From contig OZ245002.1 of the NCBI GenBank assembly GCA_965223415.1, positions 2,112,001-2,176,000 on the forward strand: a stretch of 64,000 nucleotides of DNA, read 5' to 3'. Below are positions 42,926 through 51,955 of the stretch, in pieces. The notes under the pieces are model-generated. The model was not told the DNA's origin, did no database searches, and saw only the letters and a list, made by a program, of their open reading frames with translations. Positions within the stretch are counted from its first letter, which is position 1, and each line of letters starts with the position of its first letter. A program made the position numbers and the translations under genes. The stretch is from Myxococcota bacterium. GTDB taxonomy: Bacteria; Myxococcota_A; UBA9160; UBA6930.

Positions 42926-44488
42926 ATGGAATGGCTCACCCGACTCCTCCAGCAGATCGGCTCGCTTCCGGCCGGCCGTCAGGCCGTGCTGGGCGCGACC
43001 GCCTTCGGCTCTCTCGCCTTCCTGCTCTGGATCGCCTACGGCGCCGCCACGCCGGACTACCGGGCGGCTTACCGCGGCCTTCCCGAGGACGAGATCGCCC
43101 GGGTGGCGGAGATGCTCCGGGAGGAGCGAATCGAGTACAAGGTGAGCGAGGGCGGCACCGCCATCCTCGTTCCGGCGCCGATGGTCTACGAGGCGCGGAT
43201 CCGCGCGGCCGGCCGGGGCCTGCCTTCCGGTGGCGCCACGGGCTTCGAGCTCTTCGACCAGCCGGCCTTCGGCGTGACGGACTTCGTGCACCGGGTGAAC
43301 TACTCGCGCGCCATGCAGGGTGAGCTGGCCCGCAGCATCGAGCAGCTCGAACCGGTGGCGCGCGCGCGGGTGCAGGTGGTGATCCCCGAGCGCAAGAGCG
43401 TCCTGGCGGCGGCCAACCGCAAGCCCAGCGCCGCCGTCGTGGCCCGGCTCCAGCCCGGCCGCGAGCTGCAGCAGGAGCAGGTGCGGGCGATCGTCCACCT
43501 GGTGGCGTCGAGCATCGAATCCCTCGACCCGAGCGACGTCACGGTCGTCGACGGCAGCGGCCGGCTGCTCACCGCCCAGGGCGAGGACGTGGCCGGCGGG
43601 GCGCTGCCGGCGGGCGGCGCGCCTTCCTACCAGCAGCGGGTGGAGAAGGATCTCGGCCGGCGCATCGAGGCCATCCTGGAGAAGACGGTCGGACCCGGCG
43701 GCGTGATCGCCCGGGTGCGCGCCGACATGGATTTCACGGAGCGCGAGACCACCGAGGAGGTCTTCGATCCGGATTCGCAGATCGCCCGCAGCGAGCAGCG
43801 CACCACCGAGACGGCCAGCGAAGGCGGCGGCGAGGGCGGCGTACCGGGCGTCGCCTCGAACACGCCGGACCTGGCCGCGGCGACCGGCTCGGGCGGCGGC
43901 AACGCCTCCAGCTCGAACCGCACCGCCGAGACCTTCAACTACGAGATCAGCAAGACCGTGAGCCGCCAGATCAAGCCCATGGGCGAGACCCAGCGCCTCT
44001 CCATCGCGGTGCTGGTGGCGGACCGGCTGCCCGCCGAGGAAGGCGGCGAGCCGGTGCCGTGGGACGAGGATTCCCTCGCCCAGTTCACGACCCTTGCCAA
44101 GCAGGCGGTGGGCTTCGACGAGAAGCGCGGCGACCAGATCACCGTCAGCAGCGCCCCCTTCCGCACACCGGACGCGGAGATTCCCGAGGAAGGCCTGCTC
44201 ACCCCGGAGATCCTGTTCCTGATCGGCACCGTGGTACGGGTCGTCGCGGTGGTGCTGGCGCTCTTCCTCTTCGCGCGTCTCGTGGTGCGGCCCGTCCTCG
44301 ACACCCTCGAGAGCGCGGCGCCGATCCCGCTCCCGGCAACGGTGGCGGATCTGGAGGCGCAAGCGGCGCTGCCGGAGAGCGAGGCCGCCGCGGCCCTGCC
44401 CGAGGGCGAGGTCGATCAGAGTCCGATCGCGGCGGTCCGCACCGACGAAGGCGTGCAGACCCTGCGCAACTGGCTGAACCAGGGATAG
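42926..44488 (+). CDS. fliF: MS-ring protein FliF
   Basis: GFELFD, RAMQGELARSI, NYEISK, RGDQI, LRNWL. Confidence 0.96.
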   Translation: MEWLTRLLQQIGSLPAGRQAVLGATAFGSLAFLLWIAYGAATPDYRAAYRGLPEDEIARVAEMLREERIEYKVSEGGTAILVPAPMVYEARIRAAGRGLPSGGATGFELFDQPAFGVTDFVHRVNYSRAMQGELARSIEQLEPVARARVQVVIPERKSVLAAANRKPSAAVVARLQPGRELQQEQVRAIVHLVASSIESLDPSDVTVVDGSGRLLTAQGEDVAGGALPAGGAPSYQQRVEKDLGRRIEAILEKTVGPGGVIARVRADMDFTERETTEEVFDPDSQIARSEQRTTETASEGGGEGGVPGVASNTPDLAAATGSGGGNASSSNRTAETFNYEISKTVSRQIKPMGETQRLSIAVLVADRLPAEEGGEPVPWDEDSLAQFTTLAKQAVGFDEKRGDQITVSSAPFRTPDAEIPEEGLLTPEILFLIGTVVRVVAVVLALFLFARLVVRPVLDTLESAAPIPLPATVADLEAQAALPESEAAAALPEGEVDQSPIAAVRTDEGVQTLRNWLNQG

Positions 44489-44491
44489 CGG

Positions 44492-45493
44492 TTGGAGTTC
44501 GAGACCCTCACAGGCGCCGAGAAGGTCGGCATCGTGATCCTCTCCCTCCCGAAGGATCGGGTGACGGAGTACCTCGCCCAGCTCTCGGACGAAGAGGTGG
44601 AGAAAGCGCTCTCCGCCGTCTCGCGGATGGAGAAGATCGAGCCCCGCATCCAGAGGCTGGTGATGAGCGAGTTCCAGGAGTCGATCGGTCAGCAGGACAC
44701 CGCGATCGCCGGCGGCCGGGAGACGGCGCTCGCGATCGTGGAGAACGGCCTCGACGACGAGCGGGCCGCCGGCATCCTCGAGAAGCTCGGGCGCGACGAG
44801 CAGCGCATCGATTGGACGCTGCGCTCCTACCACCCGAAGTTCATCTGCGATCGCATCGAGGACGAGCACCCGCAGACGATCGCGCTCATCCTCTCGCAGA
44901 TCCCCGCGGATCGGGGAGCGGTAGTGATCAACACGCTGCCCGAGGCGATGCAGCCGGAGGTGGTGCTGCGGCTGGCCAGCATGCAGCCCGTGGCCACCGA
45001 CGTGATGACGGATCTCGAGATCGGCGTGGCGGAGCTCTTCCGCCGGCAGAAGGTCTCGACCACACGCGCCGGCGGAACCAAGGCCGCGGCGAACATGCTG
45101 AACCGCGTCCCGAAGGAGGAGGGCTCGACCATCCTCGACGGTGTGGACGTGCGCGACGCCGCGGTGGCCGTCGACATCCGCAAGCGGATGCTCACCTTCG
45201 AGGACCTGCAGAACATCGACAAGCGTGGCTTCCAGACTTTCCTGCGCGAGGTGTCGACCGAGGACCTGGCGGTGGCGATGAAGACCGCCTCCGAGGAGAT
45301 GCAGGAGAAGATCTTCTCGAACCTCTCCTCCCGCGCGGTGGACCAGATCAAGGAGGAGGTGGATCTCCTCGGGCCCATGAAGCTCGCCGACGTGGAGGCG
45401 GTGCAGGAGCAGATCGTCGAGGTGGCGCGGCGGCTCGAGGCCGAGGGACGGCTCTCGATCGAGCTGGGAGGCGGCGATGACGTCCTCGTTTAG
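44492..45493 (+). CDS. fliG: Motor switch protein FliG
   Basis: LTGAEK, EHPQTIALILS, MLTFEDL, NLSSRA, GP..L.DVE; TTG start. Confidence 0.95.
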   Translation: MEFETLTGAEKVGIVILSLPKDRVTEYLAQLSDEEVEKALSAVSRMEKIEPRIQRLVMSEFQESIGQQDTAIAGGRETALAIVENGLDDERAAGILEKLGRDEQRIDWTLRSYHPKFICDRIEDEHPQTIALILSQIPADRGAVVINTLPEAMQPEVVLRLASMQPVATDVMTDLEIGVAELFRRQKVSTTRAGGTKAAANMLNRVPKEEGSTILDGVDVRDAAVAVDIRKRMLTFEDLQNIDKRGFQTFLREVSTEDLAVAMKTASEEMQEKIFSNLSSRAVDQIKEEVDLLGPMKLADVEAVQEQIVEVARRLEAEGRLSIELGGGDDVLV

Positions 45494-46103
45494 GACCGAG
45501 ACGCCGGAGGAGGCGGCGGCGTTCGTGGTGGATCCGCTCTTCGGAGAGGACGGCTTCACCACCGAGCTCGCCGCACCCGATCCCACGCCGGAGGAGCAGC
45601 AGGCGGCTGCCTACGAAGAGGGTCGTCGGGCCGGACGGGCTGAGCTGCCGTGGGAGGACGCGGAGCGCCTGCGCACGGCGGCGGATGCCCTCGCCGGTGC
45701 GGCGGACGCCCTGGCCCTCGTGCAGCGCGACGGCCTGCGCAGTCAGCGCACGGCGATCGTCGACCTGGCGCTGGTCGTCGCCGGACACCTCCTCGGCCGC
45801 GAAATCGAAGCCGATACCGACGCCCTGGCGGCCCAGGTGGCCGACGCCCTCGAGCTGCTCCAGGGCCACGCGCCGCCGGCGGTGCACCTCTCGCCCCCCG
45901 ACCACGAGACGCTGCGGGGCGGCGGCGCGCCGGGCCTCGAGCGCCTGGCCGGCGAGTGGGGCGCGACGCTCGTGGCCGACGAGGAGCTCGCCCCGGGCCA
46001 GGTTCGCGTGCTCGGCGGTGAGAGTCTGGTGGAGATCGAGCTGGACCGGGCGCTCGCGCGCCTTCGCGAAGAGCTGCTCGCCGCGAACGGGGGAGGCTCG
46101 TGA
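45477..46103 (+). CDS. fliH: Flagellar assembly protein FliH
   Basis: AYEEGRRAG (GxxxG), VHLSPPD, DEELAPG; between fliG and fliI. Confidence 0.82.
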   Translation: MTSSFRTETPEEAAAFVVDPLFGEDGFTTELAAPDPTPEEQQAAAYEEGRRAGRAELPWEDAERLRTAADALAGAADALALVQRDGLRSQRTAIVDLALVVAGHLLGREIEADTDALAAQVADALELLQGHAPPAVHLSPPDHETLRGGGAPGLERLAGEWGATLVADEELAPGQVRVLGGESLVEIELDRALARLREELLAANGGGS

Positions 46104-47464
46104 GCGCGCCCGCGCCCGACGTCCACGAGGGATTCCTCCGCGGTTGCGAGGAGCGGCTCGCCGCGCTGCCCCGCGCGGAGCTCCAGGGCCGGGTGACCAG
46201 CGTGGTCGGTCCGTCCATCGAGGCCGTGGGTCTGCCCGCGCGGATCGGCTCGCTCTGCGAGCTCGAGCCCCGCGACGGACGCAAGCTCGACGCGGAGGTC
46301 GTGGGCTTCCGCGAAGGCCGCACCGTGCTGATGGCGCTCTCCGAGGCCGGCGGCGTCGGCCCGGGCACGCCGCTGCGCCTCCGCGGGAACCAGGTGAGCG
46401 CGCCCCCGGCGGCGCGCTGTCTCGGTCGTGTGATCGACGGGCTCGCGCGTCCCCTCGACGACGGCCCGCCGCTACCGCCCGGTGGCGGTGCGCGGCTGCA
46501 CCGCAAGCCCGAGCGGGTGCTCGAGCGCGATCGCATCGACACGCCCCTGGACCTCGGCGTGCGCACCCTGAACGCGCTCCTCACCGTGGGTCGCGGCGCG
46601 CGCATCGGGCTCTTCGCGGGCTCCGGTGTCGGCAAGTCGACCCTCCTCGGACAGATCGCCCGCTCCACCGGCGCCGACGCGATCGTGGTCGGGCTCGTCG
46701 GCGAACGCGGTCGCGAGGTGCGCGAGTTCGTCGAGCGGGATCTCGGCCCGGCCCTCGAGCGCTCCACCGTCGTCGTGGCGACCAGTGACGAGCCTCCGCT
46801 GCTGCGCAAGCGCGCGGCGCTCCTGGCCACCGCCCTGGCGGAAGAGCTGCGCGATCAGGGGCGCCACGTGCTCCTGCTCTTCGATTCCCTGACCCGCTTC
46901 TGCACGGCACTCAGGGAGATCGGTCTCGGTGCGGGCGAGCCGCCGGCGACCCGCGGCTATCCGCCCTCGGTCTGGGCCGAGCTCCCGAAGCTGGTCGAGC
47001 GCGCGGGGACCGGCGCCGGAGGCGGCTCGATCACCGCGATCTACACCGTGCTGGTGGAGGGCGACGACCTGATGGAGCCGGTGGCGGATTCCGCCCGTGC
47101 GCTGCTCGACGGCCACGTCGTGCTGTCCCGTGACCTCGCCGAACGCGGCCATCACCCCGCGATCGACCTGCTGGCCAGCGTGTCGCGGGTGATGCCCGAC
47201 GTCGTCGCACCGCAGGTGATGGCCCGGGCCGAGCGAGCCCGTGCGCTCCTCGCCACCTATCGGGACGCGGAGGACCTGATCTCGATCGGCGCCTACGCCG
47301 AGGGCAGCAACCCCGCCGTCGATGAGGCGCGCCGGCTGCGGGAGCCGCTGCTGCGCTTCCTTTGCCAGGCTCGGGACGAGGCGTCGGACCTGGATACCAG
47401 CTTCCGCGCGCTGGCGGAGGCCATGGGGTCGTCCGACGCGGCGGCGGAAAGAGGTGACGCGTGA
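46100..47464 (+). CDS. fliI: Flagellar export ATPase FliI
   Basis: AGSGVGKST, GERGREVREF, DSLTRF, GEPPATRGYPPS. Confidence 0.96.
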   Translation: MSAPAPDVHEGFLRGCEERLAALPRAELQGRVTSVVGPSIEAVGLPARIGSLCELEPRDGRKLDAEVVGFREGRTVLMALSEAGGVGPGTPLRLRGNQVSAPPAARCLGRVIDGLARPLDDGPPLPPGGGARLHRKPERVLERDRIDTPLDLGVRTLNALLTVGRGARIGLFAGSGVGKSTLLGQIARSTGADAIVVGLVGERGREVREFVERDLGPALERSTVVVATSDEPPLLRKRAALLATALAEELRDQGRHVLLLFDSLTRFCTALREIGLGAGEPPATRGYPPSVWAELPKLVERAGTGAGGGSITAIYTVLVEGDDLMEPVADSARALLDGHVVLSRDLAERGHHPAIDLLASVSRVMPDVVAPQVMARAERARALLATYRDAEDLISIGAYAEGSNPAVDEARRLREPLLRFLCQARDEASDLDTSFRALAEAMGSSDAAAERGDA

Positions 47465-48429
47465 AGCGCGGCTTCCGACTCGGCACCGTCCTGCGCGTGC
47501 GCAGGCACGAGCTCGACCAGGCCGCGTTCCAGCTGGCCCACGCGGAGCGCGCCCTGTCGCGCGCCGAGCGCGCGGCGACGGAGGCCGAACGCCGGGCCCG
47601 GGATGCGCGCAGCCTGCTGCGGGACCGGCTCCAGCTCGGTCTCGAGGGTGGTGAGCTGCGCGTCGCGGCCGACGGTGTGGCGCGCCTGGGCGAGGAGGCC
47701 CTCCACGCGGCAGCCGAGACCGCCGCCGCCCGCGAGCACCGGGCCGCCCGCCGCGAGGCGGTGATGGCGGCTCGCAAGCGCGTGAAGGCATTGGAGCAGC
47801 TCGAAGCACTCCACCGCGAGCGGGAGGCCCGGGAGCGCGCCCGCCGCGAGACCCGAACCCTCGACGAGGCCGGCCTGCGGCGCTTCCACGGGCGGCCCCT
47901 CGTGGGCTGGCTGCTCTGGCTGAGCCTGCTCGCGGCCCTCCCGGCGCCGGCGCCGGTGTTCGCCGAGGACGCGCCGGCCGCCGCGGCCGAATCCGACTAC
48001 GGCGTGACCACCCTGCTCACCGAGATCCGCACCCGCCAGGCCGAGCTCGACCGTCGGGAGCGCGCCCTGGACGAGCGAGAGAAGGCCATCGCGCGTCTCG
48101 AGGAGCAGATCGCCGTGGAGCTGGCCGAGCTCGAGGCGATCGCTTCCACCGTCGAAGAGCGCATCGCCGCCTGGGAGGCGGATAACGGGGACGCCGTGCG
48201 CAAGCTCGCGAAGATCTACGCCGCCCTGGCGCCCGCCCGCGCGGCGGAGCTGTTGGAAGAGCTCGAGGTCGGCCTTGCCACCCAGATCGTGGCGAAGATG
48301 AAGGACAAGCAATCGGCCGCCGTGCTGGCGCGCATCTCCGAGAGGCGCGCCCTCGACATGAGCCGCCGGGTCGCGCACCCCCTGGCGATGGAGCCCGCCC
48401 AACCTTCCCGGAAGGGAGAGAAGCGATGA
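47461..48429 (+). CDS. fliJ: Fused FliJ - MotE/FlbB(YlxF)-like protein
   Basis: N-terminal FliJ (FRL..VL.VR, K.LE.L, LDE), hydrophobic segment, then coiled coil and MgtE_N-like KLAKIYAALAP..AA.LL...M...QSAAVL. Confidence 0.72.
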   Translation: MKRGFRLGTVLRVRRHELDQAAFQLAHAERALSRAERAATEAERRARDARSLLRDRLQLGLEGGELRVAADGVARLGEEALHAAAETAAAREHRAARREAVMAARKRVKALEQLEALHREREARERARRETRTLDEAGLRRFHGRPLVGWLLWLSLLAALPAPAPVFAEDAPAAAAESDYGVTTLLTEIRTRQAELDRRERALDEREKAIARLEEQIAVELAELEAIASTVEERIAAWEADNGDAVRKLAKIYAALAPARAAELLEELEVGLATQIVAKMKDKQSAAVLARISERRALDMSRRVAHPLAMEPAQPSRKGEKR

Positions 48430-49811
48430 ACGTACAGGCCGTTCCCAACGAGCTGGCCGAGTTGCCTGCCTCCGGCACGCACGGCGCCGAAGGCGAAGCG
48501 CCCGAAGGCGCCGAGTTCGACGCCATACTCTCGCACGCTCAGAGCCAGGGCGATGCCGAGGCGGAAGAGCAGGGCGGCGAGGCCGAGGAGGAGGCGCTCG
48601 CGGCCGCTGCGGCCGAGACCGCCCGTCCCGCCATGGCGCCGAACGGCCGCGCGCTGCCCCTGATCGAGAGCCTCGTCCTCGGCCTGCGGCAGACGCTGCG
48701 CGAAGCCGCGCGCGAGGTGAACACGGGTGCTAGGACGCCCGCGGCTGCCCAGGCTCCGATGGGCGAGCTTCCGCACGCGGCACCCGCCGCGCAGGGCCAG
48801 GCCCTCCCGCTCATCGAGAGCCTTGCGCTGGGCTTGCGCGCTTCCCTCGACGAAGGCGTTCGCAGCGGCCTCCAGGGCGTCGCTTCGCAAGCGCCGAGCA
48901 CTTCGGAGCCCCTCCCCACGCCGAACGCCGGTTCCGCGATTCCGGCGCCGGTCGCCCTCGGCGACGCCGTTCGCAGCGAGGCGCCGGCCTCCGACGCTGC
49001 GCCTCCGCCGCTGCCGACGCCCGCCGTGCCGGAGCGCGGACCGCAGACGACCCTTCCCGGCGAGGTGGCGGCCGCACAGCTCGGCGCGAGTGGCGGTGGC
49101 GACCGCGGCGCGTCCGATGCCGACACGCCGGACGCCTCCCTCGGCCAGCCCACGGGCCTCCCGCGGAGCGACGCCTCCGCCCCCGGGACGACGAGCGGGG
49201 ACTTTGCTGCCACGCTGGAGAGCACCCGGGAGGCGGGACCCGCCCCGGCGCTCGCCCCCGCGGCACCCACGCCTTCGCCCACCGCGGTGGAGGCCGCGCT
49301 GGCCCAGGTGGCTCCGCCCGGTCCGGCGAGCAGCGCGCCGGTGCACGCGGCCGGCGCCCCGGAAGAGGTGCTTCCGGTGCACGTGGAGTGGCTGGCGGCG
49401 CGCCAGGGTGGCAACGCCCGCATCTCGCTGCATCCGCCCGAGCTCGGTGAGCTCGAGCTGGCGGTGCGCGTGCGGGGCAGTGCCGTCGACATCACGATTC
49501 GTGCGCAGGATCCTGCGGCCCAGCTCGCCGCGGCCCAGAGCCGGGAGCTTCTGGAGGGAGCGCTGGCCGGCCGCGAGCTGCGCATCGATCAGTTCGAGGT
49601 GCGCGGTCTCCAGTCCGAGCTGGGCCGCGAGGACCATCCGGCCCAGACCGGGAGCCAGGCCCAGCAGGACGCCTCGGCGCGCCGGGGAGACCGGGAGCGC
49701 GAGGGCGGAGGCGAGCCGGCCACGCCGTTCGCCGCCTCCTCCGGCCGGGAAGCCGCGGACGGTCCGTCGTCCGAAGCGCCCCCCCACGCCGAAGTCGATC
49801 TGCGGATCTAG
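48426..49811 (+). CDS. fliK: Hook-length control protein FliK
   Basis: Pro/Ala-rich ruler region, ARISLHPPELG, VDLRI C-terminus. Confidence 0.9.
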   Translation: MNVQAVPNELAELPASGTHGAEGEAPEGAEFDAILSHAQSQGDAEAEEQGGEAEEEALAAAAAETARPAMAPNGRALPLIESLVLGLRQTLREAAREVNTGARTPAAAQAPMGELPHAAPAAQGQALPLIESLALGLRASLDEGVRSGLQGVASQAPSTSEPLPTPNAGSAIPAPVALGDAVRSEAPASDAAPPPLPTPAVPERGPQTTLPGEVAAAQLGASGGGDRGASDADTPDASLGQPTGLPRSDASAPGTTSGDFAATLESTREAGPAPALAPAAPTPSPTAVEAALAQVAPPGPASSAPVHAAGAPEEVLPVHVEWLAARQGGNARISLHPPELGELELAVRVRGSAVDITIRAQDPAAQLAAAQSRELLEGALAGRELRIDQFEVRGLQSELGREDHPAQTGSQAQQDASARRGDREREGGGEPATPFAASSGREAADGPSSEAPPHAEVDLRI

Positions 49812-49823
49812 GGAAGGAACACG

Positions 49824-50465
49824 ATGATCTCCACCGACGTCATCGGCCGGAACTCCTCGGCCGACATCACCGGGAGCGCCGAGCGCCCGGAGCTGGGTCA
49901 GGAGGACTTCCTGGCCATGCTCATCGCGCAGCTCGAGAACCAGGATCCCCTCGAGCCCCAGGACGGGACCGAGTTCACCGCCCAGCTGGCCCAGTTCTCG
50001 AGCCTCGAGCAGCTGCTCGGGATGCGCGAGGCGATCGACGAGCTCGCCTCGGTGCAGGTCCAGGCCCAGACCCTGGGAGCCGTCGGGCTGATCGGCAAGA
50101 ACGTGCTCGTGCAGGGCAGCCAGTTCGAGATCGATCCGAGCGCGAGCGAGCTTCCGAAGCTGGCCTTCGCGCTGGCCGAGCCCGCCGAGGTGCGGAGCGT
50201 GGAGCTCTTCGACGAGAAGGGCCGGCTCGCGGCGCGCATCGACGACCTCGGCCTCCAGCCCGCCGGCACGACCCAGCTCGACTGGGCCGACTTCAGTCGC
50301 CAGCCCGGGCCCGGCCTGTACACGATCCGCATCAACCAGCTCGAGGGCGCCCTGGCGCGGCCGCTGGTCGAGAGCCGGGTGACCGGGACCGCGATCCAGG
50401 ACGGTGTGCTCTACCTCGGACGTGCCGAGGCGAACCTGTCCGACGTCCGGGAGGTGCGGGAGTGA
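49824..50465 (+). CDS. flgD: Hook cap protein FlgD
   Basis: FLAMLIAQLENQDPLEP, EFTAQLAQFSSLE. Confidence 0.96.
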   Translation: MISTDVIGRNSSADITGSAERPELGQEDFLAMLIAQLENQDPLEPQDGTEFTAQLAQFSSLEQLLGMREAIDELASVQVQAQTLGAVGLIGKNVLVQGSQFEIDPSASELPKLAFALAEPAEVRSVELFDEKGRLAARIDDLGLQPAGTTQLDWADFSRQPGPGLYTIRINQLEGALARPLVESRVTGTAIQDGVLYLGRAEANLSDVREVRE

Positions 50466-50656: not shown

Positions 50657-51955
50657 ATGTCGCTCTCCAACGCCCTCTTCTCCAGCGTCACCGGTCTCGA
50701 GACCAGCTCTACGGCGATCTCCGTGATCGGTGAGAACATCGCGAACGTCAACACGCCCGGCTTCAAGCAGAGGCGCGTCGAGTTCGCCGACATCCTGGGC
50801 CAGGCCCTCGGGACCGGCGGGAGCTTCTCGCAGACCGGCTCCGGCGCGCGGGTCGCGCGGATCATCCGCGTCGACAGCCAGGGCTCCTTCGAGTCCAGCG
50901 AGCGAGCCACCGACATGGCGATCGAGGGGCAGGGCTTCTTCCTGCTCGATGATCCGGTCGGCGGTCGCAGGTACACGCGGGCCGGCCTGTTCGGTTTCGA
51001 CAACCAGGGCTACCTGGTGGACAAGGAGGAGTTCCGGGTCCAGGGCTTCACGATCGATCCCCTGACCGGCGCCTCGACCGGGCAGCTCGCGGACATCCGG
51101 CTGATCCCCGGCATCGCGGCGCCCCAGGTATCGGCACTCGTCGACATTTCGCTCAACCTGGATGCCGGGATCACGACGCCGTCCGCGCCCTTCGCTCCCG
51201 CCAATCCCCAGGGTACCTCCGACTTCCAGCAGACGGTAACGCTCTTCGACTCGCTGGGTGCCGGGCACTCCGCCACGATCTTCTTCAGCAAGACCGCCGC
51301 GGCGAATACCTGGGACTGGACGGCGGCGGTCGATCCCGCCGACACCACCACGCCCCCGGCGGCGCCCGGTGACCCCTACGTAGTGATGGGCGGTGGCCAG
51401 CTCACCTTCGACCCCTCGGGCAACCTGATCGGCCTGACCGGCAACCCGGTGAACTTCGACTTCTCGGGCGGCGCCCTGGCGGGCCAGGCGGTGACCTTCA
51501 ACTTCGGTCCGGTGGCCGGCGTGGGCACCGGGGAGCCGACGACCCAGTTCGCCGAGCAGTCGGCGATCAACTCGGTGAGCCAGGACGGCTTCGCCCCCGG
51601 CGCGCTCCAGGCGATCACCATCGACACGGACGGGGTGATGGTGGGCAGCTTCTCGAACGGCGAGACCCGCAATCTCGCCCAGCTCGCCCTGGCCCAGTTC
51701 CCGAACGTCGAGGGCATGGCCTCGACCGGCAACAACAACCTGCTCGAGACCCGCGCCTCCGGTCAGCCGCTGATCGGCGAGCCCCGCAGCGGGCAGTTCG
51801 GAGCCATCCGGGCCAACAACTTCGAGCAGTCCAACGTGGACCTGGCCGACCAGTTCGTCCGACTGATCATCAACCAACGGGCCTTCCAGGCGAACACGAG
51901 AACCGTCTCCGTGACCAACGAGCTGCTCGCCAACGTGGTGCAGCTCGGCCAGTAA
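50657..51955 (+). CDS. flgE: Hook protein FlgE
   Basis: NIANVNTPGFK, YTRAG.F, EQSNVDLA, QRAFQAN. Confidence 0.96.
   Translation: MSLSNALFSSVTGLETSSTAISVIGENIANVNTPGFKQRRVEFADILGQALGTGGSFSQTGSGARVARIIRVDSQGSFESSERATDMAIEGQGFFLLDDPVGGRRYTRAGLFGFDNQGYLVDKEEFRVQGFTIDPLTGASTGQLADIRLIPGIAAPQVSALVDISLNLDAGITTPSAPFAPANPQGTSDFQQTVTLFDSLGAGHSATIFFSKTAAANTWDWTAAVDPADTTTPPAAPGDPYVVMGGGQLTFDPSGNLIGLTGNPVNFDFSGGALAGQAVTFNFGPVAGVGTGEPTTQFAEQSAINSVSQDGFAPGALQAITIDTDGVMVGSFSNGETRNLAQLALAQFPNVEGMASTGNNNLLETRASGQPLIGEPRSGQFGAIRANNFEQSNVDLADQFVRLIINQRAFQANTRTVSVTNELLANVVQLGQ

Follow-up and report, generated by a model that had tools for sequence, protein, structure and literature searches.

In-frame fusion of fliJ to an E-ring family gene through an internal signal-peptide-like segment in a flagellar operon of a Myxococcota bacterium

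The stretch of DNA analysed here, referred to as the window, comprises 64,000 nucleotides (nt) of contig OZ245002.1 (positions 2,112,001 to 2,176,000; GenBank assembly GCA_965223415.1) from a Myxococcota bacterium, and carries between the flagellar genes fliI and fliK a single open reading frame (ORF) in which FliJ, the stalk protein of the export ATPase, continues without a stop into a protein resembling MotE, FlgY, FlbB and YlxF, the family that makes up the flagellar motor's E-ring. The initial annotation of the window had described this ORF as FliJ fused in frame to a MotE/FlbB-like protein via an internal signal-like segment, and the Pfam and NCBIfam models, the AlphaFold2 model and the operon position all agree with that description. 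The features of the ORF, with the evidence for each in brackets, are as follows.

47461..48429, forward strand: fused fliJ-E-ring ORF, 322 amino acids (aa) plus stop, GTG start, stop-free inside
47461..47895, forward strand: FliJ moiety, residues 1-145 (PF02050, TIGR02473, 3AJW alignment, AlphaFold2)
47878..47964, forward strand: internal signal-peptide-like segment, residues 140-168 (charge/hydrophobicity pattern)
47902..47904, forward strand: in-frame GTG (V148), candidate internal start (codon scan)
47965..48426, forward strand: putative periplasmic MotE/FlgY/FlbB/YlxF-like (E-ring family) moiety, residues 169-322 (MgtE_N, weak FlbB, homologues, fold match)
47998..48225, forward strand: predicted long alpha-helix, residues 180-255; modelled as pairing with a second copy in a parallel, in-register coiled coil (AlphaFold2, complex prediction)
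48232..48375, forward strand: predicted four-helix MgtE_N/ARM-like head, residues 258-305 (Pfam, AlphaFold2, fold match)

The N-terminal half was recognized by two family models, PF02050 at residues 19-142 (model positions 1-123 of 123, 45.1 bits against a cut-off of 28.4) and TIGR02473 of NCBIfam at residues 5-142 (model positions 2-139 of 141, 55.1 bits against a cut-off of 50.45). A profile of 30 fused homologues aligned residues 1-145 of the query with residues 4-148 of the Salmonella FliJ chain (PDB 3AJW; E 1.2e-8), and this alignment stops two residues short of the Salmonella C-terminus, precisely at the start of the hydrophobic core in our protein. Since the alignment is full-length up to residue 145, the hydrophobic segment begins where a normal FliJ ends, with no spacer in between. 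In the AlphaFold2 model, for which an alignment of 30 sequences was used as input (mean predicted local distance difference test score, pLDDT, of 87), the FliJ part is an antiparallel two-helix coiled coil made of helices 7-58 and 63-142 with pLDDT above 94. Judged by these alignments, residues 1-145 are a complete FliJ. The protein shares with FliJ of Salmonella enterica the full-length alignment, the two-helix antiparallel coiled coil and the position of its gene directly after fliI, but the Salmonella protein is soluble and present once per motor (PMC9114704), whereas here the C-terminus is, at the level of the gene, not free and runs without spacer into the signal-like, hydrophobic segment and a putative periplasmic domain.

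For the C-terminal half, MgtE_N (PF03448) matched residues 250-302 with 22.9-24.4 bits, slightly below its cut-off of 25.9, and the FlbB equivalog model of NCBIfam (NF047368) gave a weak match at residues 186-278 with 21.2-22.2 bits; the cut-off of the latter is 110, and by this measure the protein is not an FlbB equivalog. The MgtE_N match alone cannot identify an E-ring protein, because the MgtE_N/ARM-like fold is common to FliG, MgtE and the head of E-ring proteins; the FliG encoded in the window (44492-45493) also matches MgtE_N, with 35.2 bits. AlphaFold2 models this half as a single long helix (residues 180-255, pLDDT 83-97) followed by four short helices (258-305), a shape that matches the long helix plus globular head described for E-ring proteins in PMC13023049. 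The top PDB match found by Foldseek was the FliF-YlxF integrative model 9a67_B (E 1e-2), followed by FliG and MgtE chains, all at E>=1e-2; with the whole model no match in PDB was obtained at E<=1e-3, and the top matches are suggestive at best. When two copies of residues 170-316 were predicted as a complex, the score was 0.44 (median of three runs) against 0.00 for the best control, a mark that 20 of 30 proteins with solved homo-pair structures attained, as did 1 of 23 whose solved structures are single chains; with an alignment of our own these counts hold only roughly, and the pass may partly owe to likeness to solved complexes. At least 85% of the contacts agreed between the runs and the pLDDT of the partner was at least 72, the predicted interface being a parallel, in-register coiled coil of residues 182-238.

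According to PMC13023049, MotE, FlbB, FlgY and YlxF form one family, COG3334, whose dimers assemble into the E-ring and the spokes that surround the MS-ring; as a rule the gene adjoins fliJ and/or fliK, and about one third of the members carry a signal peptide and about two thirds a transmembrane motif. The second half of the fused protein fits this family by synteny, modelled fold and predicted dimerisation. The surrounding flagellar genes, assigned by Pfam, are as follows.

42926-44488: fliF
44492-45493: fliG
45477-46103: fliH
46100-47464, forward strand: fliI, export ATPase, directly upstream of the fused ORF
48426-49811, forward strand: fliK-like hook-length gene, directly downstream of the fused ORF
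49824-50465: flgD
50657-51955: flgE

The fused gene occupies the classic position in the order fliI-fliJ-ylxF/motE-fliK, its fliJ part lying directly 3' of fliH-fliI and its E-ring part adjoining fliJ and fliK as expected for COG3334. Stop and start codons overlap by 4 nt at each of the successive borders, between fliH and fliI (GTGA, 46100-46103), between the stop of fliI and the GTG start of the fused ORF (GTGA, 47461-47464) and between the TGA of the fused ORF and the ATG of fliK (ATGA, 48426-48429), and this chain suggests tight translational coupling across the fusion. In the genome of the window (G000), a PF02050 search for a second fliJ gave one real match plus a 14-bit chance match, and a protein search for a second motE-like gene gave a single match, the fused ORF itself.

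In order to examine the possibility of a lost stop codon, raised in the initial annotation, public sequencing data and related genomes were inspected. In four public runs, one contig each spans positions 47300-48600 with 0 differences from the window and 0 gaps at depths of 4.8-148, the four runs representing two samples of one study that is possibly the source of the assembly itself. The fused relatives likewise lack a stop near the junction, and their conserved fusion together with the identical contigs rules out a sequencing error or a lost stop. The apparent internal stops in genomes G005 and G002 turned out to be merely the normal terminal stops.

Matches were obtained in 13 of 41 genomes in the search of relatives, and in 12 of 33 genomes in the search of the family. 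The latter include G020, whose weak match (L013, G020:C9, E 9.8e-6) is an unrelated, non-flagellar secreted coiled-coil protein, hydrophobic at its N-terminus and resembling SH3 in its C-terminal region; this match was excluded from the counts, leaving a true FliJ/E-ring match in 11 of 33. In nine of these 11 family genomes having the gene the two parts are fused in frame, and the nine represent three genera, that of the window (G000, G001, G002, G004 and G005), a second (G023, G043 and G045) and a third (G007). Two separate genes in different frames were found in G012 and G042 of the same family and, among 16 genomes searched from other families of the order, in the four that matched (G026, G027, G028 and G031). 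The split pairs are orthologous to the fused gene (31-47% identity in tblastn matches) and lie at the same locus, but differ in that, in all six genomes, FliJ ends at a stop and the second gene is in the +2 frame with its own start and an N-terminal signal peptide. The E-ring gene of the split loci (L007, L009, L010, L011, L012 and L020) starts near, or overlaps, the fliJ stop. With the E-ring gene in the +2 frame at all six split loci and its start this close to the end of fliJ, one small indel would therefore suffice to create or undo the fusion. The distribution of flagellar genes within the family is patchy, matching and non-matching genomes occurring within the same genera, and Myxococcota are better known for gliding than for swimming.

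In protein databases we found twelve proteins of 314-323 aa with 53-72% identity over 90-100% of the query; those among them with a source name are labelled plain 'FliJ' and come from uncultured bacteria, and one database relative is labelled Myxococcota by source. A library clustered at 50% identity gave 2559 hits at E<=1e-3, mostly stand-alone MotE-like proteins of 130-250 aa; when 72 of the best 150 matches were examined, 21 representatives carried both parts, three of them N-terminally truncated (P0051, P0061 and P0074). Of 30 aligned fused proteins, 27 are matched by the Pfam FliJ model and 28 by MgtE_N (E<=0.01). The homologue search proposed in the initial annotation thus recovered the same architecture in nine genomes and, at the 50% identity level, in about 21 clusters: the fusion of the two neighbouring flagellar genes is genuine and has been retained in evolution.

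The ratio of nonsynonymous to synonymous substitution (dN/dS) was calculated by the Nei-Gojobori method (NG86) for the closest pairs, other pairs being set aside as saturated at synonymous sites (proportion of synonymous differences, pS, above 0.5). For loci L021-L022 the ratio was 0.26 in the FliJ part, 0.23 at the junction and 0.09 in the E-ring part; the values for the FliJ and E-ring parts were 0.19 and 0.15 for L001-L002, and 0.14 and 0.13 for L001-L003. Both halves are maintained, because dN/dS in these closest pairs stays at 0.14-0.26 for FliJ and 0.09-0.15 for the E-ring part. At the junction the ratio ranges from about 0.2 to 1.8, almost free to vary, and the signal-like pattern is kept nonetheless.

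This pattern, at residues 140-168, consists of a positive n-region (RRFHGR), a 14-residue hydrophobic core (147-160; the core is defined throughout as a proline- and charge-free stretch) and a Pro/Ala c-region ending in V-F-A, after which E-D follows; the hydrophobic segment as a whole was placed at residues 147-168. The motif is internal here, and by rule-based comparison its features match those of the N-terminal signal peptides of the relatives. A rule-based check for substrates of signal peptidase I found all the features looked for, namely a positive n-region, a core within 7-15 residues and small residues at -3 and -1, and the candidate cut falls between A168 and E169, that is between positions 47964 and 47965, in accordance with the A-x-A-type site near 47964 proposed in the initial annotation. 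AlphaFold2 models a short helix at residues 146-158 (pLDDT about 65) and disorder at 160-178. The core is 13 residues long in the median among 37 fused proteins (range 10-19, with 1 of the 37 reaching 19), and the core of the N-terminal signal peptides of 37 stand-alone relatives has the same median of 13 (range 10-21). A strict site, A-x-A followed by one of E, D, Q, N, A or S, was found in 31 of the 37 fused proteins, where shuffled windows would lead one to expect 20.6, and in 28 of the 37 stand-alone relatives against 21.7 expected from shuffling. The net charge is positive upstream of the junction in 34 of 35 fused proteins, and zero or negative downstream of it in 33 of 35. In length and make-up, the likeness of the junction to the cleavable signal peptides of the relatives, rather than to a membrane anchor, is the favoured reading of these sequences. 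The joint is probably the Sec signal peptide that once stood at the N-terminus of the second protein and has become internal, the basic tail of FliJ being its n-region. A programmed frameshift yielding stand-alone FliJ was also considered and rejected, the other frames at the junction having neither a conserved stop nor a slippery pattern.

As described in PMC9114704, one FliJ is present per FliH12-FliI6 complex, where it penetrates the FliI6 cavity with its central helix-loop-helix protruding toward the FlhA linker; it has been likened to the gamma and D rotor subunits (PMC3665681). Since FliJ sits in the FliI6 cavity with its middle toward FlhA, both of its ends should lie within the ATPase ring and at a distance from the membrane, an arrangement that is hard to reconcile with a FliJ whose C-terminus runs into the membrane only a few residues on. 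With moderate confidence we favour a precursor that is inserted N-in/C-out and cut by signal peptidase I, the ring subunit being freed and FliJ left with a signal-peptide tail. The ORF would be translated as a single precursor, and the internal signal would insert in such a way that FliJ stays cytoplasmic and the C-terminal part becomes periplasmic, as the positive-inside rule predicts from the charge and hydrophobicity pattern. Signal peptidase I would then cut after V-F-A168, which, from the likeness to signal peptides, would yield a soluble dimeric E-ring subunit like stand-alone MotE or FlgY. FliJ would keep a signal-peptide tail of about 22 residues, and this tail might be trimmed by signal-peptide-degrading proteases or might slip from the membrane, FliJ then entering the FliI6 pore; both of these last steps are speculative. 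A length like that of signal peptides, together with the A-x-A pattern, thus favours, short of proof, the polyprotein split by signal peptidase, one of two readings offered in the initial annotation.

If the precursor is cleaved, fusion would be nearly neutral, which would explain its apparently repeated gain or reversal. A quick IQ-TREE build on the E-ring domain (80 rows, 37 fused and 43 split, 133 columns) requires at least seven changes of the fused state, at least two of them forced by well-supported branches. Of the 37 rows in one supported clade, 30 are fused and 7 are split, and other fused pairs are nested among split relatives; junction lengths differ between the fused groups. On this tree, fusion or fission has probably happened more than once, although its columns are few and many of the database 'split' labels rest on gene calls.

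Several points weigh against the reading of a cleaved precursor. A loose -3/-1 rule is obeyed by 36 of the 37 fused proteins against 35.1 expected and does not discriminate in such Ala-rich sequences; because this looser rule is no better than chance, the support from the cleavage-site pattern is moderate. The stoichiometry is odd, one FliJ being present per motor (PMC9114704) against 13-17-fold rings of E-ring dimers (Table 1 of PMC13023049). The removal of the tail from FliJ is itself speculative. Furthermore, measured against the E-ring part, FliJ has diverged somewhat faster in fused than in split pairs: the median FliJ identity is 0.26 at an E-ring identity of 0.52 in fused pairs (23 of 36) and 0.34 at 0.45 in split pairs (10 of 10), the pairs not being independent, and this hints at an altered constraint on FliJ after fusion. 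Finally, the whole uncharged stretch at the junction is 12-23 residues long with a median near 18, and if left uncut it could still span the membrane.

The length of this stretch, sufficient to cross a bilayer in many members, speaks for the other reading offered in the initial annotation, an uncleaved bitopic protein in which a signal-anchor would keep each E-ring subunit membrane-bound like FlbB and its FliJ domain would face the cytoplasm; instead of a single free stalk, FliJ would be present in many membrane-tethered copies around the MS-ring and export gate. We hold this to be possible but on the unlikely side. The ring evidently tolerates an anchor, two thirds of the E-ring homologues being membrane-anchored (PMC13023049), the fusion is retained over deep divergence with purifying selection on both parts, the faster divergence of FliJ after fusion fits a changed role, and the predicted parallel, in-register dimer would place both N-termini on one side. 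On the other hand, the cores are as short as in cleavable signal peptides, the uncharged stretch has only 12 residues in 4 of 35 fused proteins, and the A-x-A site occurs more often than expected; the neighbouring FliH and FliI are intact, implying a canonical ATPase complex, and the FliJ C-terminus is expected in the FliI6 pore far from the membrane, with no spacer before the core. A tethered FliJ as the link to the ATPase is geometrically awkward, the termini lying inside the FliI ring (PMC9114704). The stronger version, in which every E-ring subunit has FliJ as its cytoplasmic foot, held for good at the inner membrane, and dozens of FliJ domains ring the export gate, is doubtful; if true, it would link the periplasmic motor scaffold across the membrane to the export apparatus, and FliJ would act on the FlhA gate from the side of the membrane, as its activator, and not as a single rotor-like stalk in FliI6.

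The relatively faster evolution of FliJ in fused lineages could also mean that its stalk function has been lost and that the moiety is now a cytoplasmic N-terminal extension of the ring protein, cut or uncut, with export proceeding without a canonical FliJ. In Salmonella, suppressor mutations give near wild-type export in the absence of FliH-FliI-FliJ (PMC9114704). We regard such a loss as improbable, because the FliJ dN/dS of 0.14-0.26 in the closest pairs is not neutral, FliJ models match 27 of 30 fused proteins over the full length, the AlphaFold2 hairpin is modelled confidently, and no second fliJ to take over was found in G000.

Separate initiation at the in-frame GTG at 47902 (V148), suggested in the initial annotation, would give a normal pre-E-ring protein with the read-through fusion as a by-product. 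The codon exists as stated, and an in-frame ATG, GTG or TTG between the C-terminal motif of FliJ and the core is present in four of seven fused loci: G000 and G001 have a GTG where the core begins, G005 a TTG and G023 an ATG at residue 139. In the other three (G002, G004 and G007), however, no usable in-frame start was found ahead of the core, so that an internal start is not conserved; no Shine-Dalgarno-like motif precedes the GTG in G000, and initiation at V148 would leave the signal peptide lacking its charged n-region; with no stop codon in the ORF, FliJ would still be made solely as a fusion. Internal initiation is accordingly disfavoured and very improbable. An artefact of sequencing or assembly, or a frameshift that recently made the gene a pseudogene, for which only the a priori oddity of the gene and the possible origin of the assembly from the same four runs could be adduced, is practically negligible in view of the identical contigs, the retention of the fusion among relatives and the purifying selection on both parts.

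Among known systems, the closest to the second half are the signal-peptide-type E-ring proteins of COG3334, MotE of Sinorhizobium meliloti and Cereibacter sphaeroides and FlgY of Campylobacter jejuni and Helicobacter pylori, with which it shares a signal-peptide-like segment, the long helix, a predicted MgtE_N-like head, dimers that are predicted or known and a gene beside fliJ/fliK; database relatives of the fused protein are in fact named 'MotE family protein'. The difference is that this segment is internal here, after 145 residues of FliJ, and that the MgtE_N score is just below the cut-off. FlbB, the collar base of Borrelia burgdorferi, and YlxF of Bacillus subtilis are membrane-anchored and have in common with it a hydrophobic segment before the helix and head; YlxF also shares the gene order fliJ-ylxF-fliK and provides the top fold match. 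Compared with both, the core is shorter here and is followed by an A-x-A site, and the score lies below the FlbB equivalog cut-off. As to the polyprotein arrangement, Bradyrhizobium japonicum FbcH (cytochrome b-c1) and flavivirus polyproteins are cut by signal peptidase at an internal signal sequence. In such polyproteins a single ORF supplies both an upstream part kept in the cytoplasm or membrane and a downstream part that signal peptidase sets free on the other side; the upstream part here differs in being a soluble cytoplasmic protein working far from the membrane, and processing is here a predicted event. No mention of a FliJ-MotE/FlbB/FlgY fusion was found in the main texts of the literature searched, and the words fusion and fused occur in unrelated uses only in the text of PMC13023049, PMC13277936 and 10.1101/2025.02.19.638559 that was searched. 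Both parts are ordinary; the unusual feature is that a probable signal peptide, kept at the joint, links them across the membrane.

FliJ is held to be a single free stalk with its termini in the FliI6 ring and its middle at the FlhA gate, and here its C-terminus is welded without spacer to a secretion signal and a periplasmic ring protein. As the weld is retained across several genera and no spare fliJ was found in G000, nature has here put to the test whether the function of FliJ depends on its being free. If the precursor is cleaved, a Sec-dependent polyprotein would deliver one product to each side of the membrane, an arrangement rare in bacteria, and the synthesis of an export component would be tied to that of the motor scaffold; if FliJ works anchored, the rotary-stalk picture would be challenged, with a bearing on how FliJ activates the export gate. 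In either case the locus adds a new architecture to the recently recognised and widespread E-ring family.

The FliK-like protein encoded directly downstream (48426-49811) has as its sole Pfam match the C-terminal Flg_hook domain at residues 321-393, and its N-terminal half carries two copies of a motif of about 15 residues (ALPLIESL.LGLR...), about 50 residues apart in Ala/Pro-rich surroundings.

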